5,243 nucleotides of DNA from Promethearchaeia archaeon (lineage in GTDB: Archaea > Asgardarchaeota > Lokiarchaeia > Sigyniarchaeales > SOKP01), in contig JAWOFX010000067.1 in the NCBI GenBank assembly GCA_046497275.1, forward strand, positions 1-5,243, given 5' to 3'. Positions 1 through 5,243 of this stretch are shown piece by piece. Both the position numbers and the translations under genes were made by a program. Below the pieces are notes generated by a model. That model worked only from the letters and a program-made list of their open reading frames with translations. It had not been told where the DNA came from and searched no databases. Each line of letters opens with the position of its first letter. Within the stretch, counting starts at the first letter, position 1.

Positions 1-794
1 TCATATACAACAGTAGATAATTCTAGAGGAGAAATAGTTGGCTTATTCATCATTTCCATGATCTTTTTATAAATTTGATACAAGTTTGAATCTAAAGTAC
101 CTATTTCAAACTTCATGAACTGAAACGGTTTAGATTCAAATCTTCCGAAAGTAGATGCAATAAGAAGCCCATCTGGGCGATTAAATAAAAGATATTCCGA
201 GAGTGTATTAATTTTAAATTGATCTAATAAATGTCTGACCTTTCCTAAACGTTGTAGACTTAAGGTTGATTTTTGGATTTCATAATCTAAAATTTCTATA
301 AGTCTATGTTGCGCACTTCCCCACTTTACCGAGACAGGAGTAAATTTAATCTTTCTTTCAGTTTCCTCATCAAGATTATTTGAGAGTAGCTCATAGACAT
401 TATCTTCTTGTGATTCGTCTAAATCAATTTTATTCAATAATACATAAATTTCTTCGATATGAGGGCTAAATTCAAATATATTCATTAAAAATTTATCAAA
501 AATTTCCTTTATTTTCGGATCCGTAACTGTAGCGTCCACCATAAACACTGTGGTCGTTACCTCTGAAAATATAAATTCTCTCTGTTTGTCTGAAAAATAT
601 CTCTCCATATATACTTCTTGGCCGCCTGCGTCCCATACATTCAATTCCATAATACCTCGAAATATAAAATTCTCTCTCGAGATGCCTTTCGTAGGTTTTA
701 AATTGACCACTTTCATAAAGTTATAGCCAAGACAGACAGTCCTGAGGAGACTTGTCTTCCCTGCCCCAGCTGGCCCAAATACGAGCACTTTCAC
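1..794 (-). CDS. Rag/Gtr1-family small GTPase with C-terminal roadblock-like domain (3'-truncated by window edge; 264 codons visible)
   Basis: Hand translation from GTG at 794: (M)KVLVFGPAGAGKTSLLRTVCLGYNFMKVVNLKPTKGISRENFIFRGIMELNVWDAGGQEVYMERYFSDKQREFIFSEVTTTVFMVD...LLNKID...PVSVKW...EYLLFNRPDGLLIAS... No stop occurs before base 1. Motifs: G1 GPAGAGKTS (776-750), G2 T35, G3 WDAGGQ (635-618), G4 NKID (434-423), G5-like SVK (332-324). An in-frame TAA lies at 836-834 with no ATG between it and the P-loop, and GGAGAG sits 7 nt upstream of the GTG. The F-x-G...LN-x-WD-x-GGQ...ME-x-YF...QR..IF pattern matches RagA/Gtr1 as I recall it. Confidence 0.9.
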   Translation of the reverse strand, partial: MKVLVFGPAGAGKTSLLRTVCLGYNFMKVVNLKPTKGISRENFIFRGIMELNVWDAGGQEVYMERYFSDKQREFIFSEVTTTVFMVDATVTDPKIKEIFDKFLMNIFEFSPHIEEIYVLLNKIDLDESQEDNVYELLSNNLDEETERKIKFTPVSVKWGSAQHRLIEILDYEIQKSTLSLQRLGKVRHLLDQFKINTLSEYLLFNRPDGLLIASTFGRFESKPFQFMKFEIGTLDSNLYQIYKKIMEMMNKPTISPLELSTVVY

Positions 795-800
795 GAGATA

Positions 801-848
801 TCTCTCCGAATTTCTTCTATTAATAGTATGATGTTATTTATTTATAAA
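801..848 (-). promoter_or_regulatory. Putative TATA box (TTTATAAA, 841-848) and Shine-Dalgarno-like GGAGAG (807-802) for the Rag-like GTPase
   Basis: TTTATAAA matches the archaeal TATA consensus about 50 nt upstream of the GTG, implying a roughly 25-nt leader that contains GGAGAG. No clear purine-rich BRE, and the AT-rich background makes chance matches likely. Confidence 0.45.
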
Positions 849-950
849 TGTAATAAGTTCATCCGTATTTAATATTTTAGATTTAACAAACGATATTCTT
901 CCATTTTACAAAATTTGTTACTAATAATTAAATAATTCCTAAAATTATCT

Positions 951-1010
951 AAAATAGAATTTATTAAAGTAGAAATAACTAAATCAGAAATAACGAAAGT
1001 TGAAGTAAAT
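951..1010 (+). repeat. Degenerate tandem repeat, 4 x 15 bp (consensus AAAGTAGAAATAACT)
   Basis: Units: 951-965 AAAATAGAATTTATT, 966-980 AAAGTAGAAATAACT, 981-995 AAATCAGAAATAACG, 996-1010 AAAGTTGAAGTAAAT. Identity of the other three units to unit 2 is 11/15, 12/15 and 12/15, in exact register with no spacers. Confidence 0.6.
953..967 (+). promoter_or_regulatory. Putative BRE/TATA for apt (AATAGAA-TTTATTAA)
   Basis: A purine-rich stretch is followed by TTTATTAA at 960-967, about 45 nt upstream of the ATG at 1009. Motif match only. Confidence 0.4.
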
Positions 1011-1539
1011 GGTTAAACTTTTAGATTATATTAGAAATGTACCCGATTGGCCTGTAAAAGGAGTTCAATTCAAAGACATCACTACACTATGTCTGGAACC
1101 AATTCCATTTAAGGAATCAATAGATAGAATTGTTGATCATTACAAGGGAAAGGGAATTGATAAAGTGGCAGCCATTGAAGCACGAGGGTATGTGTTTGGA
1201 GGAGCAATTGCATACATTCTTGATGCGGGATTTGTTTTAATACGAAAAGAGGGAAAGCTACCTTGGAAACTTCATAAAGAGACTTATGAACTTGAATATG
1301 GAACAGATACAATAGAGATGCATCTAGATGCTATAAAAGAAGGAGAAAATGTATTGTTATTTGACGATCTCTTAGCAACTGGTGGAACTGCGAAAGCAGC
1401 AGCAAAATTAGTAGAAAAAGCAGGAGGTAAGGTAGCGGGCATTGCATTTATTATTGAGCTCACAGGAAGCCTTCATGGTAGAGATTTAATAAAAGATTAT
1501 GATCTTTTATCTTTGGTCGAGATTCCTGTTGAAGAATAA
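1009..1539 (+). CDS. apt: Adenine phosphoribosyltransferase (short, bacterial/eukaryote-type APRT)
   Basis: 176 aa. N-terminal IRNVPDWPVKGVQFKDIT (APRT hood motif PDFP..G..F.DI), IEARGYVFG, IRKEGKLP, YELEYGTD flexible loop, and PRPP-binding motif LFDDLLATGGT. Confidence 0.95.
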   Translation: MVKLLDYIRNVPDWPVKGVQFKDITTLCLEPIPFKESIDRIVDHYKGKGIDKVAAIEARGYVFGGAIAYILDAGFVLIRKEGKLPWKLHKETYELEYGTDTIEMHLDAIKEGENVLLFDDLLATGGTAKAAAKLVEKAGGKVAGIAFIIELTGSLHGRDLIKDYDLLSLVEIPVEE

Positions 1540-1580
1540 ATTCAGACGAAAATTAAACACTTAGGATTTAGAAGAAAATT

Positions 1581-1613
1581 AAAAAAAATTATTTTTATTA
1601 AATCTTATTTTTT
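1581..1613. terminator. Probable oligo-T terminators shared by convergent apt and mtnP
   Basis: The 72-bp convergent gap (1540-1611) contains A8 at 1581-1588, read as T8 on the minus strand about 24 nt after the mtnP stop. It also has T5 (1592-1596) and T6 (1608-1613) on the plus strand after apt. Archaeal termination typically uses U-rich tracts. Confidence 0.45.
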
Positions 1614-2484
1614 ATAGAATTGCTCCCCTTAAAGAATGGTGGCATGCGCAATCTCTTTCTATATCTATTTTTGGAATTGTTAATTCTAACATTTTCTTTA
1701 AATATTCTGCATTATGTTCCATTGTTTCTAAGATCTCTTCTACATCTACGGCTAATCGTCTCACTGGTCCACCGCAGTTTTCACAAGCAGGACCGAATTC
1801 TACGATTCCGCAATTTTCACATTCCCCAGCCCACACATCCAAATCAGTAACAGTTGCAATACAGCAATAACACAGTTCTTTTTCAGCAGCCAGTACAACT
1901 TCGGGATAAGTCGTCATTCCAATGATATCTCCTCCCCATTGACGAAACATTATAGATTCTGCTCTGGTTGAAAATCGAGGTCCTTCTATACATACATAAG
2001 TTCCACCCTTTTGAATATTTAGACCTTCTATATTATTTGCTGTATCATAAAAAAGATCATTTAGATACGAGCAATATGGATCTGGTTGGCCAATATGACA
2101 AACTTTTCCTCCCTCATAGAATGTGTCAAGTCTTTTTTTAGTTCTATCAATATATTGATCCACTAGAATAAATTTTCCTTTTTCATGCTCTTTTCTTAAG
2201 GATCCTACTGCAGATGGAGAAATTATTATTTTTACCCCTAATTCTTTAAATGCCCAAATATTTGCTCTGAAATTTAACTTATGAGGAGGAATAGTATGAC
2301 CATTCCCATGTCGTGAAAGAAACGCCACTTTTTTACCCCTAAAATTACCAATCTTAATCAAATCCGAAGGCCTTCCATAGGGTGTATACACTTTTATATC
2401 TTCAGCATTTTCCAATTCAATATCCGAACCAGTACCTCCAATAATTCCGATACTGGCTTTATCTTCATCACTCTTTAGTCTCAT
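1612..2484 (-). CDS. mtnP: S-methyl-5'-thioadenosine phosphorylase (MTAP, PNP family 2) with Cys4 insertion
   Basis: 290 aa. Motifs IGIIGGTG, TPYG, FLSRHG..H..PPH..NFRANIWA, SAVGSL, DQYIDRT, GTYVCIEGPRFSTRAES, IGMT..PE and TVTDLD. The D-x-D pair is typical of 6-aminopurine-specific MTAPs. A C-terminal CAC motif is present, and an SD-like AAGGA lies 7 nt upstream of the ATG. Confidence 0.93.
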   Translation of the reverse strand: MRLKSDEDKASIGIIGGTGSDIELENAEDIKVYTPYGRPSDLIKIGNFRGKKVAFLSRHGNGHTIPPHKLNFRANIWAFKELGVKIIISPSAVGSLRKEHEKGKFILVDQYIDRTKKRLDTFYEGGKVCHIGQPDPYCSYLNDLFYDTANNIEGLNIQKGGTYVCIEGPRFSTRAESIMFRQWGGDIIGMTTYPEVVLAAEKELCYCCIATVTDLDVWAGECENCGIVEFGPACENCGGPVRRLAVDVEEILETMEHNAEYLKKMLELTIPKIDIERDCACHHSLRGAIL

Positions 2485-2683
2485 TTTTGAATCCTTCTTA
2501 AGCTATGATTTATAATTCTTGATTATATCAAAAGAATTAAAAATTTTTTCATATTTGATATTAGATCCGTAGGTAGTTTACAATTCTAATTCTCAAATTA
2601 ATTTTTCTATAAATCTTTTTAAGATTTTTCCAAAATCAATAAAAAATAACCTAAAAGATTTTTTTGATTGTCATATTTATTGT

Positions 2684-2698
2684 TGTAGAATTAAATAA
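2684..2698 (+). promoter_or_regulatory. Putative BRE/TATA (TGTAGAA-TTAAATAA) for a leaderless beta-CASP transcript
   Basis: TTAAATAA at 2691-2698 is centred about 27 nt upstream of the ATG at 2722, and no SD-like sequence precedes the ATG (ACAGATCACCG). This geometry is typical of leaderless archaeal mRNAs. Confidence 0.4.
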
Positions 2699-2721
2699 TT
2701 ATTAATAGATACAGATCACCG

Positions 2722-4029
2722 ATGGCTAAAATAACATTTCTCGGTAGCTGCAGAGAAGTTGGAAGATCTGCAATACTTGTTGAATCGAAAGCAGGAAATC
2801 AATTCTTATTAGATTATGGTATCCGGTTTGGAGAAGAGGAACGATTACCACATAAATCAGACCTCACAAAATTAAAGGGTGTCGCATTAACTCATTGTCA
2901 TGTAGATCATTCAGGCGCTTTACCCTTTTTATATTTGCATAATAAAAGCCCCCCTCTTTTTACGAATGGTTTAACTTTAGATGTCTCAGATAAACTGATA
3001 AAAGACTCTTTAAAAATTTCAAAATATCCTTATCCTTTTGGATTTAAAGAAATCGATAATATGAAACGAAATGCGTATTTTTTACCAAAAGGAACCAGAA
3101 GAAAAGTGTCAAATGACTTTTATATAACCTTTTATGACGCTGGGCATGTTCCTGGAAGTGTATCAATTGTATTAGAGGTTGATGGTAAAAAAATTCTATA
3201 TTCTGGAGATATTAATACGAAAAAAACAAATCTTGTTGATTCAGCAAATCCTTCAGAAATACCTGAGATTGATGTTGCAATTGTTGAATCCACCTATGCA
3301 TTGCGAGAACATCCTCCCCGAGAAAAATTAGAAAAACAATTCGTTAATGATGTAATAGAAGTGACTCAAAATGGAGGTACGGTATTAGTACCTGCCTTCG
3401 CAGTAGCCCGCTCTCAAGAGGCTATCATGATATTAAATAAATATAGATATAATGATAAATTATTCCTCGATGGGATGGGTAAATTAATCTCAAAAATTTA
3501 TTTCGATTATCCCGAGGCATTGAAAAATAGACATCTCTACAGAAAAGCGCTAAGAAATGTCGATTTTGTCAATCGAAAAAGAAAACGCTCGGTAGTGAGA
3601 AAGTCTAGTGGTGTAATTGTCTCAACTTCAGGGATGCTTAAAGGAGGAGCTGCTTTAGAATATATTGAGACTATTCTAAACGATCCTTATTCTGCTGTCT
3701 TTTTGGTAGGGTATCAAGTAGAAGGAACACCCGGAAGAAATCTTTTAGATACAAATATCTTTAAATTTAGAGAAAATAACAAAGAAAGACATAATAATTA
3801 TGAAATAAATATTAAAGCTAAATGTGAAGTAGATTATTATGATTTTTCATCTCATGCTGATAGTAATGGATTGCATTATTATGTGGATAATTTGAAATTT
3901 ATTAATAGTTCAAGAGAAATATTCACAGTCCATGGAGATAATGAATCTACAACCAATTTTGCCAGTGAATTAGTAGAAAAAGGATATAATTCAGTTTCTC
4001 CTGAAACGGGAGAGACTTATATAATCTAG
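2722..4029 (+). CDS. MBL-fold beta-CASP ribonuclease lacking N-terminal KH domains (aCPSF2/YSH1-like)
   Basis: 435 aa. Starts ITFLGSCREVGRSAILV. Motif I LLDYG, motif II HCHVDH (aa 58-63), motif III AGHVPGS, motif IV YSGD, motif A VESTY, beta-CASP core PAFAVARSQE and GYQVEGTPGR, motif B FSSHAD (H378), motif C VHGD (H404). There is no roughly 180-aa KH extension, so this is not aCPSF1/FttA. Confidence 0.9.
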   Translation: MAKITFLGSCREVGRSAILVESKAGNQFLLDYGIRFGEEERLPHKSDLTKLKGVALTHCHVDHSGALPFLYLHNKSPPLFTNGLTLDVSDKLIKDSLKISKYPYPFGFKEIDNMKRNAYFLPKGTRRKVSNDFYITFYDAGHVPGSVSIVLEVDGKKILYSGDINTKKTNLVDSANPSEIPEIDVAIVESTYALREHPPREKLEKQFVNDVIEVTQNGGTVLVPAFAVARSQEAIMILNKYRYNDKLFLDGMGKLISKIYFDYPEALKNRHLYRKALRNVDFVNRKRKRSVVRKSSGVIVSTSGMLKGGAALEYIETILNDPYSAVFLVGYQVEGTPGRNLLDTNIFKFRENNKERHNNYEINIKAKCEVDYYDFSSHADSNGLHYYVDNLKFINSSREIFTVHGDNESTTNFASELVEKGYNSVSPETGETYII

Positions 4030-5243
4030 TTATTATTCAATTGCTCTTCTATTACTTTATCACAATTTTCTAAAAAAACATCTATTTTATCAGTAGGTAT
4101 TTTGGTACCCGCCGCGGGTGGATGTCCACCTCCTAATGCGATTAAATTTGTTAATTCTAATGCCTTACGAATCGCATCAGACAAATTTACTCCTTTTTCC
4201 ACAATAGATTTATGCGCTCTTGCAGAAATTTTGTACACATCCTCGTCTTTTCTTTTCGCATACCCAAAAATAGGTTTATCTCTATCAATTATTTCACTTT
4301 CGTCAAAAATTAACATTGAAGATACAGTGCCTATTATACTTTCAGGAATCATATCATTCCCATAAAAATACTGAATGTTATCCATTTCATTAATAACTTT
4401 ATTTTCTCTTATCCACATTAAAGCATTCACCAGAGATTTTTTATAATCCTGTAAATTTTGTTTTGCTTGCTTGTATGCTTCATTTCTATCCCCCATTGCC
4501 ATCGCAATTCCAATAGATGCATTATTTGTTCTTCCACATGCATTTAATAAATTAGAAAATTCATTGATATCTTGTAAATCTGAACCCTCTTGTTCTGATG
4601 TGAGTAAATATCTATTCACTATTAATTTATTGATTATTTGATAAGGCTCTATATCAAGTTTTATAGAGATATACTCTATTATTGCAGATGTTATTTTTTG
4701 TTTCTCTTCTTGATTTAAATCCATTAAACTTTTTATAGTTCCATCAGAATGTTTCATTAGGATTCCTAATTGTTTCAAAAATTTCAAAGTTTTGTTAGCA
4801 TCACCACTCAAACCAGGCAAGTTAATTTCTGATGAATAAGCTATAGCTTTATTTAATGGTTTTATTGGAGAAAAATTGATATCATCTACCACTGCAATTA
4901 AATCTTTACTTTTTGCTTCTTCAGCGATTTTTGCATTAATGCCAACGAATGATTTATTTTTTCCTTGATTTTGGACATCACCACTTGCTCCAATAAGGGC
5001 AATAACCGAGAGATCTGAATTTTTTTCATCTAATTTTTTTGTAAATAAATAACTCATACCAGAACCAGAGATCTCTTCACTCCCATCAATTCCATAAAAA
5101 TAGGGATTAATATGCCATTCCTTGGTACTCTTATAAATTTCTTTTAAAAGATCAATCTTTTCTTTGTCAGAGACTCCATAAGGTAGATGATGATCTAATA
5201 TAATAAATGGATTAGTTATATTCTCTTCTATAAATTTATATTG
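4026..5243 (-). CDS. recJ: Archaeal RecJ/GAN (Cdc45-related) DHH-DHHA1 nuclease, 5'-truncated by window edge
   Basis: The frame stays open upstream of the track's Met at 5057 to base 5243: QYKFIEENITNPFIILDHHLPY...WHINPYFYGIDGSEEISGSGMSY... The DHH motif is at 5195-5187. NP..GIDG..EISGSG, IGASGDVQ, NACGR, KISARA and DHHA1 GGGHPPAAG are characteristic of archaeal RecJ/GAN. 406 codons are visible. Confidence 0.88.
   Translation of the reverse strand, partial: QYKFIEENITNPFIILDHHLPYGVSDKEKIDLLKEIYKSTKEWHINPYFYGIDGSEEISGSGMSYLFTKKLDEKNSDLSVIALIGASGDVQNQGKNKSFVGINAKIAEEAKSKDLIAVVDDINFSPIKPLNKAIAYSSEINLPGLSGDANKTLKFLKQLGILMKHSDGTIKSLMDLNQEEKQKITSAIIEYISIKLDIEPYQIINKLIVNRYLLTSEQEGSDLQDINEFSNLLNACGRTNNASIGIAMAMGDRNEAYKQAKQNLQDYKKSLVNALMWIRENKVINEMDNIQYFYGNDMIPESIIGTVSSMLIFDESEIIDRDKPIFGYAKRKDEDVYKISARAHKSIVEKGVNLSDAIRKALELTNLIALGGGHPPAAGTKIPTDKIDVFLENCDKVIEEQLNNN

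Follow-up and report, generated by a model that had tools for sequence, protein, structure and literature searches.

S-methyl-5′-thioadenosine (MTA) phosphorylase (MTAP) has been studied heavily in the contexts of cancer, parasite drug design, and methionine and purine salvage, and the choice of substrate is believed to be affected by its gate loop. In the enzyme of Schistosoma mansoni (SmMTAP), the stretch directly after the catalytic, base-binding Asp pair (D230, D232) is called the gate loop; when no ligand is bound, this loop is open or disordered; it closes over adenine and is locked open in some structures by a Cys233-Cys242 disulfide (PMC5147791). Among solved structures, the closest to the protein described below are the MTAPs of Sulfolobus, namely S. 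tokodaii MTAP and S. solfataricus MTAPII (SsMTAPII), in which a C-terminal CXC motif has been discussed as a stabilizing, possibly redox-active disulfide (PMC3787623). Here, a stretch of 5,243 nucleotides (the window) from a Promethearchaeia archaeon of the class Lokiarchaeia (assembly GCA_046497275.1, contig JAWOFX010000067.1, positions 1 to 5,243) was analyzed. Its mtnP gene (open reading frame at 1612..2484, minus strand, stop codon included) encodes a 290-residue MTAP, referred to as P0001, in which the gate loop is expanded by an insert bearing four cysteines (Cys4).

RESULTS

A Cys4 insert expands the gate loop

The insert, a mini-ribbon spanning residues 219-244 (1753..1830, minus strand), lies at a sharp break in otherwise continuous alignments and is without counterpart in all solved MTAPs. 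In a phmmer search against the PDB, P0001 residues 6-219 and then 245-289 align to S. tokodaii MTAP (1V4N, E 2e-77) and SsMTAPII (2A8Y), with 25 P0001 residues facing two chain residues of the Sulfolobus enzymes, for a net insertion of ~23 amino acids. The same break point recurs in the Aeropyrum pernix, human, metagenomic, and S. mansoni MTAPs. Solved MTAPs have 2-6 residues at the insert site, and no solved MTAP structure with the insert was found in phmmer and Foldseek searches of the PDB. As seen in the translation and the conservation profile, the four cysteines form two knuckles on the minus strand: C222-E-N-C225-G226 (1807..1821) and C234-E-N-C237-G238 (1771..1785).

Directly upstream of the insert lies the base-binding, catalytic Asp pair in T213-D214-L215-D216 (1837..1848, minus strand), which aligns to the TDYD of solved MTAPs. 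Across 104 MTAPs, D214 is invariant and D216 nearly so; since these two residues are the equivalents of the SmMTAP Asp pair, the ribbon is an expansion of the gate loop. An earlier examination of this DNA, made from its letters alone (the sequence-only reading), had placed four cysteines at 222, 225, 234, and 237 within residues 219-244 (nucleotides 1753-1830) and had described an insertion of ~20 amino acids after the TDxDxW strand, in a mobile active-site loop. The translation reads exactly as it was quoted there, the insertion proved slightly longer by alignment to solved structures, and its position matches the S. mansoni gate loop (PMC5147791). That examination had also held that no MTAP of such architecture was described, which is borne out by both the solved structures and the papers found: searches of the available literature library yielded no paper on a zinc ribbon in MTAP or in any other nucleoside phosphorylase, nor any on MTAP in Lokiarchaeota/Asgard archaea. 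The Cys4 insert is new as a variant of a known enzyme family, rather than as a new kind of system.

The four cysteines are retained throughout the insert-bearing clade

In a search of 5.8 billion proteins, the four cysteines were kept in 118/118 motif-bearing close homologues (68-98% identity), which follow the pattern W-A-[GA]-x-C-x-x-C-G-[IV]-V-E-x4-C-x-x-C-G. The same holds for 41/41 genomic loci returned by a genome search and for 74/74 loci found when 185,579 species genomes were scanned with a sequence pattern, such that identity to P0001 across the proteins and loci with all four cysteines ranges from 57 to 98%. At C222, C225, C234, and C237, the TGT/TGC codon use in the 41 loci is 21/20, 35/6, 32/9, and 31/10, respectively; because both Cys codons are in use at each position, synonymous change must have been frequent, while replacement was never seen. 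The combination of Cys conservation and synonymous codon turnover rules out the insert as a chance feature or an artefact. The spacer between the knuckles is eight amino acids in 38 of the 41 loci, nine in two, and ten in one; judged from these sequences, small changes in spacer length are tolerated and ligand loss is not. The sequence-only reading had considered that the cysteines might vary among insert-bearing orthologues, which is not the case, and that the insert might turn out to be widespread and already characterized; it is indeed widespread within Lokiarchaeia, with hundreds of sequences, but nowhere characterized.

The remainder of the insert is conserved unevenly. Among 82 aligned insert-bearing sequences, C222, C225, C234, and C237 are invariant, G226, V228, E229, and L244 are nearly invariant, and I227, G238, V241, and K243 are conserved. 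Variability is concentrated at the x-x residues within the two knuckles, at the tip of the hairpin (230-233), and at residues 240 and 242, all with entropies (2.3-2.8 bits) that rank among the highest of the protein. Conserved ligands, knuckle glycines, and presumably buried hydrophobic residues, together with variable x-x and tip positions, suggest the pattern typical of a structural zinc ribbon.

The two 15-nucleotide knuckle sequences lie 36 nucleotides apart and are identical at 13/15 positions, which had been taken from the letters alone as a sign of internal duplication. This similarity proved not to be evidence of duplication: 10 of the 15 positions are set by the peptide CENCG, which both knuckles encode, the genome is AT-rich, and the knuckles of homologues differ from one another in their x-x residues (consensus CPNCG versus CEKCG). 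The 13/15 identity therefore lends no support to a recent internal duplication.

The insert is confined to the class Lokiarchaeia

To the extent that sequence can delimit it, the insert is confined to five families of the class Lokiarchaeia. When 400 Asgard genomes of the phylum were searched with P0001, 86 matched the query to its C-terminal end or to the contig end (60-100% identity, E ≤ 1.7e-114), and all 86 belong to the organism's own family (f1), to one of the three remaining families of the same order (f2-f4), or to one further family of the class (f6). Matches from class families f5 and f7, and from all families outside the class, align only to approximately residue 220. Direct reading of 20 fetched genes located the insert in f1-f4 and f6; within the same 20, it was missing from every gene with a readable loop motif of f5, f7, f19, and genome G308, the last being the closest insert-less relative (61% identity). 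In a library of 1.84 billion representatives at 50% identity, a single cluster (P0040) bears the insert, and the next 149 best MTAPs (≤56% identity) have no CxxC...CxxC at the site. The scan of 185,579 species genomes used a degenerate DNA pattern for D-V-W-A-[GA]-x-C-x-x-C-G-[IVM]-V and yielded 74 loci, all of them insert-bearing MTAPs (57-86% identical); it demands the DVWA context, such that a like insert in another context would escape it. Closed single-contig genomes of the same order, G135 (4.36 Mb) and G138 (6.04 Mb), carry the insert as well (loci L031 and L032).

Several loci (L059, L092, L070, L127, L075, L096, L103, L076, and L091) come from contigs labeled by their submitters as Nanopelagicaceae bacterium (one contig), Bathyarchaeota (one contig), or Odin-, Hod-, Thor-, or Hermodarchaeota. 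These contigs carry ribbon MTAPs of Lokiarchaeia type (64-77% identical), mostly with the same neighbor genes, and are probably mis-binned, mislabeled, or outdated-name Lokiarchaeial contigs. A wider distribution of the insert, as these labels would imply, was set aside since the genes and mostly the neighbors are of Lokiarchaeial type.

In a quick maximum-likelihood tree of 97 MTAPs, rooted only at the midpoint, the insert-bearing sequences form one clade (Shimodaira-Hasegawa-like approximate likelihood ratio test, SH-aLRT, 98), whose sisters are insert-less sequences, namely G308 and representatives P0122-P0127. A single insert clade with insert-less sisters is consistent with the insert having been gained once, near the base of Lokiarchaeia.

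Predicted fold of the insert

The insert is modeled confidently both in place and in isolation. In the full AlphaFold2 (AF2) model, its predicted local distance difference test score (pLDDT) is ~95, with strands at 219-222, 226-229, and 241-243, and a 37-residue piece folded alone with its own 80-sequence alignment has the same three strands (pLDDT 88). The structure prediction suggested by the sequence-only reading has thus produced a confident β-ribbon model with CxxCG knuckles of the zinc-ribbon type. A Foldseek search with the 37-residue piece returned nothing significant (best E 0.8), and the top rows are mostly Cys4 zinc modules: the Nob1 zinc ribbon, the aIF2-γ knuckle, aRF1, RNA-polymerase and ribosomal zinc ribbons, the rubrerythrin rubredoxin domain, the MCM zinc site, the LeuRS/ValRS zinc inserts, and the adenylate-kinase lid. 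Desulfoferrodoxin and rubredoxin also appear among the weak Foldseek matches. PolD is also among the zinc-module matches from Foldseek and VIA-align. The aIF2-γ knuckle superposes on the insert with a root-mean-square deviation of 1.5 Å over 28 columns (TMq 0.61, the template modeling score by query). VIA-align, which is independent of Foldseek, gave 13 chains with Z ≥ 2 (range 2.0-2.9), nearly all of them zinc modules, with Rpb12 first and Nop10 third; the likeness to small zinc ribbons such as Nop10, noted from the spacing of the cysteines alone, thus reappears among these weak matches.

The insert belongs to no curated zinc-ribbon family, in that a Pfam scan of the isolated insert gave only sub-threshold matches. 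These include several zinc-ribbon or zinc-knuckle families, such as Zn_ribbon_Nudix (15.5 bits versus a cut-off of 25.6), Zn_ribbon_LapB (14.3 versus 25.7), and Zn_ribbon_8 (12.2 versus 34.4), beside domains of unknown function. Two CxxC knuckles supplying four putative ligands, as expected of a zinc ribbon or rubredoxin-knuckle Cys4 module, are invariant across the clade. The insert is zinc-ribbon-like in motif and predicted fold, with putative metal binding.

P0001 is an MTAP with an interrupted family profile

The Pfam domain PNP_UDP_1 (PF01048) matches P0001 over residues 12-221 (E 2.1e-37, 129 bits versus a cut-off of 25.1) and ends at the insert. Against NCBIfam, P0001 scores 284.1 bits with TIGR01694, above the curated equivalog cut-off of 274.85; the top model is the archaeal-type NF006334, for which the 326.5 bits fall below the cut-off of 382 because the insert splits the match in two. 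Residues for phosphate, ribose, and base binding (R58-H59, S172, M190-T191, and D214/D216) are invariant or nearly so in the 104-sequence MTAP alignment (A1), and they align with the same motifs of solved MTAPs in the phmmer search of the PDB. The AF2 model of the whole protein (mean pLDDT 93.5) matches 3T94 and 1V4N in Foldseek with TM scores of 0.93 by target and 0.86 by query (E 3e-34), the latter being lower because of the insert. By its domain, equivalog score, conserved residues, and fold, P0001 is an MTAP, and it is the sole MTAP homologue of its 3.85-Mb genome (98.9% complete). The source records label its homologues Lokiarchaeota or Promethearchaeota. As a consequence for annotation, automatic naming of P0001 rests on the more general TIGR01694, since the insert breaks profile matches.

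Separate from the insert, P0001 has a C-terminal CXC motif, C279-A-C281 (1642..1650, minus strand), which aligns to C259-S-C261 of SsMTAPII and in which both cysteines are nearly invariant in alignment A1. C138 and C205 are also kept; the equivalents of these residues and of the CXC form stabilizing disulfides in the hyperthermophilic SsMTAPII, an observation that bears on a redox reading of the enzyme.

Position of the ribbon in the predicted trimer

Directly after the insert, V248, I251, and L252 align with human MTAP V233, V236, and L237, which are reported to line the 5′-alkylthio pocket in the structure of the human enzyme. A homotrimer prediction (three-copy ESMFold with Zn) gave an interface score (ipSAE) of 0.92, a level reached by 20/30 proteins solved as pairs and 1/23 solved as single chains; the best of three controls scored 0.00. 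Three runs share ≥97% of contacts (that is, at least that fraction), and the partner pLDDT is 90. The pass was probably helped by memory of solved MTAP trimers. The predicted interface is canonical, with residues 110-136, 162, 183-185, 197, and 290 meeting 59-69, 116-117, 168-182, 217, and 243 of the next subunit. In this prediction, contact of the insert with the neighbor is confined to its base (V217, R243), and the ribbon body lies outside the interface.

Elsewhere in the protein, several positions are fixed in the insert clade and differ from the archaeal and bacterial outgroup: K102 (versus P), Q133 (versus M/F/L), A200 (versus R), and L215 (versus Y, in TDYD). A set comprising K102, Q133, Y193, V196, V197, A200, and L215 was considered as a docking surface for the ribbon and was dropped, several of these residues being common to human MTAP.

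An insert-less paralogue and the gene neighborhood

Many genomes of the organism's own family hold a second, short MTAP without the insert (also at loci L006 and L052-L055). Most of genus g12 has only this short form, and the genome studied here has only the ribbon form. In genome G207, the two are arranged head-to-head (locus L056; short form at 1483-2244, plus strand, and ribbon form at 521-1390, minus strand), and in G273 they share one locus. The short paralogue of L056 matches PNP_UDP_1 (E 2.5e-50), is 253 residues long and 46% identical to the ribbon form, lacks the CXC tail, and carries a loop of the ordinary kind (TDYDCW-KDDE-VPVT). In the quick tree, the short form groups with representative P0139 (SH-aLRT 99), the loop of which reads as eukaryotic MTAP-like. 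What distinguishes the ribbon form from the plain one may be its specificity or regulation, and not the underlying chemistry.

In the window, Pfam assigns the genes flanking mtnP to a Gtr1/RagA-like GTPase, apt, a β-CASP metallo-β-lactamase nuclease, and a DHH/DHHA1 protein. The order is Rag/Gtr-like GTPase (3-794, minus strand), apt (1009..1539, plus strand), mtnP (1612-2484, minus strand), and β-CASP nuclease (2722-4029, plus strand). The apt gene, which encodes adenine phosphoribosyltransferase (APRT; Pfam Pribosyltran), is the tail-to-tail neighbor of mtnP and serves here as context only. This neighborhood recurs widely in Lokiarchaeia (loci L002-L030 and L057-L130); within the fetched flanks, most insert-bearing MTAPs have a β-CASP gene next to them, and approximately half have apt and the Rag-like gene.

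DISCUSSION

A probable structural metal staple in the gate loop

On balance, the insert is probably a structural metal staple that makes the gate loop a rigid lid or brace. A module of ~23 residues would have been gained, in an ancestor of most Lokiarchaeia, at the tight turn joining the base-binding Asp strand (D214/D216) to the C-terminal helix. The two CxxCG knuckles most likely hold one Zn2+ via four thiolates, and the insert would fold as a small three-stranded ribbon, with I227, V228, V241, and L244 packing on the enzyme and the variable tip facing solvent. So placed, the staple would turn the gate loop, at the mouth of the purine/5′-alkylthio pocket, into a rigid lid or brace comparable to the zinc lid of some adenylate kinases or the knuckle of aIF2-γ, fixing the place of the catalytic Asp strand and of the loop base that touches the neighboring subunit, and it could then tune stability, gating, and possibly substrate preference of the ribbon paralogue. 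From the conserved ligand pattern and the models, we infer that metal is bound, that the metal is zinc, and that the ribbon acts as a lid or brace.

Several observations weigh against this interpretation. The near-invariance of E229 is not explained by a purely structural role. The ribbon is not required for MTAP chemistry as such, in that many genomes of the same family use or add the short insert-less paralogue. The nearness of the ribbon to the substrate pocket is deduced from its position along the chain and not from distances in the model, and the fold matches of the 37-residue insert are statistically weak (Foldseek E ≥ 0.8, Z 2.0-2.9). Furthermore, the nearest insert-less archaeal MTAPs have a turn of ~2 residues at the site, such that the ancestral turn may never have been a mobile gate.

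Other roles for the ribbon can be weighed against the same data. Were it an interaction surface, it would mediate a trimer-trimer contact of a hexamer or provide a docking site for a partner such as the neighboring APRT or Rag/Gtr-like GTPase. Apart from its base, the ribbon is solvent-exposed in the predicted trimer, and both trimers and hexamers occur among the closest solved relatives (hexameric SsMTAPII; 1V4N and 1WTA, which are listed as trimeric; PMC5738077); apt, the Rag-like GTPase gene, and the β-CASP gene lie near mtnP in many Lokiarchaeial loci. However, synteny alone is weak evidence, and the exposed residues (223, 224, 230-233, 235, 236, 240, and 242) are the most variable of the region, which is unusual for a conserved docking surface; an interaction role is possible but rather improbable. 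Other proteins, e.g., Hsp33 and RsrA, have well-established Zn(Cys)4 redox switches, and an analogous redox- or metal-responsive switch can be envisaged here, in which the ribbon would unfold on oxidation of the thiolates or loss of the metal, leaving the gate open or disordered and MTAP reversibly inactive in these strict anaerobes. The location of the insert in the very loop that a Cys233-Cys242 disulfide locks open in SmMTAP (PMC5147791), as well as the retention of the C-terminal CXC called redox-active in SsMTAPII (PMC3787623), speaks for such a switch. The conservation pattern, however, fits an inert structural site equally, and a sensing role is not known for most of the Cys4 ribbons that interrupt archaeal enzymes, so that a switch appears unlikely. 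More doubtful still is the more elaborate proposal of a ribbon that gates MTA/adenine salvage, either as a docking handle or as a Zn-thiolate switch responding to redox state or metal, perhaps with coupling to the neighboring apt and Rag/Gtr-like GTPase genes. If it were true, a regulatory ribbon would link turnover of an S-adenosylmethionine by-product to a Rag-type signaling module in archaeal relatives of eukaryotes.

The weak fold matches also raise two possibilities of quite different kinds. CxxCG knuckles are common to rubredoxins; rubrerythrin, desulfoferrodoxin, and rubredoxin are among the weak Foldseek matches; and the hosts are iron-rich anaerobes, all of which would be consistent with a rubredoxin-like Fe(Cys)4 center with an electron-transfer role. 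In rubredoxins, the CxxCG and CPxCG knuckles are separated by roughly 25-30 residues and accompanied by an aromatic core, whereas the spacer is 8-10 residues across this clade and eight in P0001; moreover, phosphorolysis by MTAP needs no electrons and the neighborhood is without a redox partner, making an iron center very improbable. A nucleic-acid-binding zinc ribbon on a moonlighting MTAP might be suggested by the many weak matches (Nop10, Rpb12, Nob1, and ribosomal proteins) that belong to RNA or DNA machines. The insert is an internal loop of only 23 amino acids, however, and has no conserved basic or aromatic surface residues. Its net charge is about -2 in both P0001 and the clade consensus, so that it is acidic, as had been pointed out from the sequence, albeit only mildly so. 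Nucleic-acid binding is accordingly given scarcely any credence.

If the structural staple were nothing further than a brace, it would be a modest curiosity, given that Cys4 inserts are common in archaeal proteins. The Lokiarchaeial gate loop, replaced by a presumed metal-stapled mini-domain under strict purifying selection throughout the history of Lokiarchaeia, nevertheless amounts to a natural experiment on gate function. In addition, most Lokiarchaeia are cleanly marked by the insert, which serves as a clade-specific molecular synapomorphy.

Comparison with known systems

Among described enzymes, SsMTAPII and S. tokodaii MTAP (2A8Y/3T94 and 1V4N) are the best sequence and fold matches to P0001 (E 2e-77, TM 0.93). 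They share with it the TDxD base-binding strand, the equivalents of Cys138 and Cys205, and the C-terminal CXC. In contrast, the Sulfolobus enzymes have a two-residue turn where P0001 has its 25-residue Cys4 stretch, the SsMTAPII pair C200/C262 is replaced by A200/H282 in P0001, and the Sulfolobus proteins derive from hyperthermophilic Crenarchaeota, whereas P0001 derives from Lokiarchaeia. The eukaryotic gate loops, including residues 231-242 of SmMTAP and that of human MTAP, occupy the same position after the two purine-binding Asp residues; they are short and metal-free, whereas the P0001 loop is predicted to fold into a ribbon that presumably binds a metal.

Structurally, the isolated insert most resembles, in matches that are not statistically significant, the Cys4 inserts in the archaeal aIF2-γ G domain (1KK3, 1S0U), the adenylate-kinase LID (4QBI), and LeuRS/ValRS. 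The Cys4 sites of these inserts are usually structural. Like the insert of P0001, they are small CxxC...CxxC hairpins in enzyme loops, but they are set in other host folds, have no detectable sequence homology to it, and none of them occurs in a nucleoside phosphorylase.

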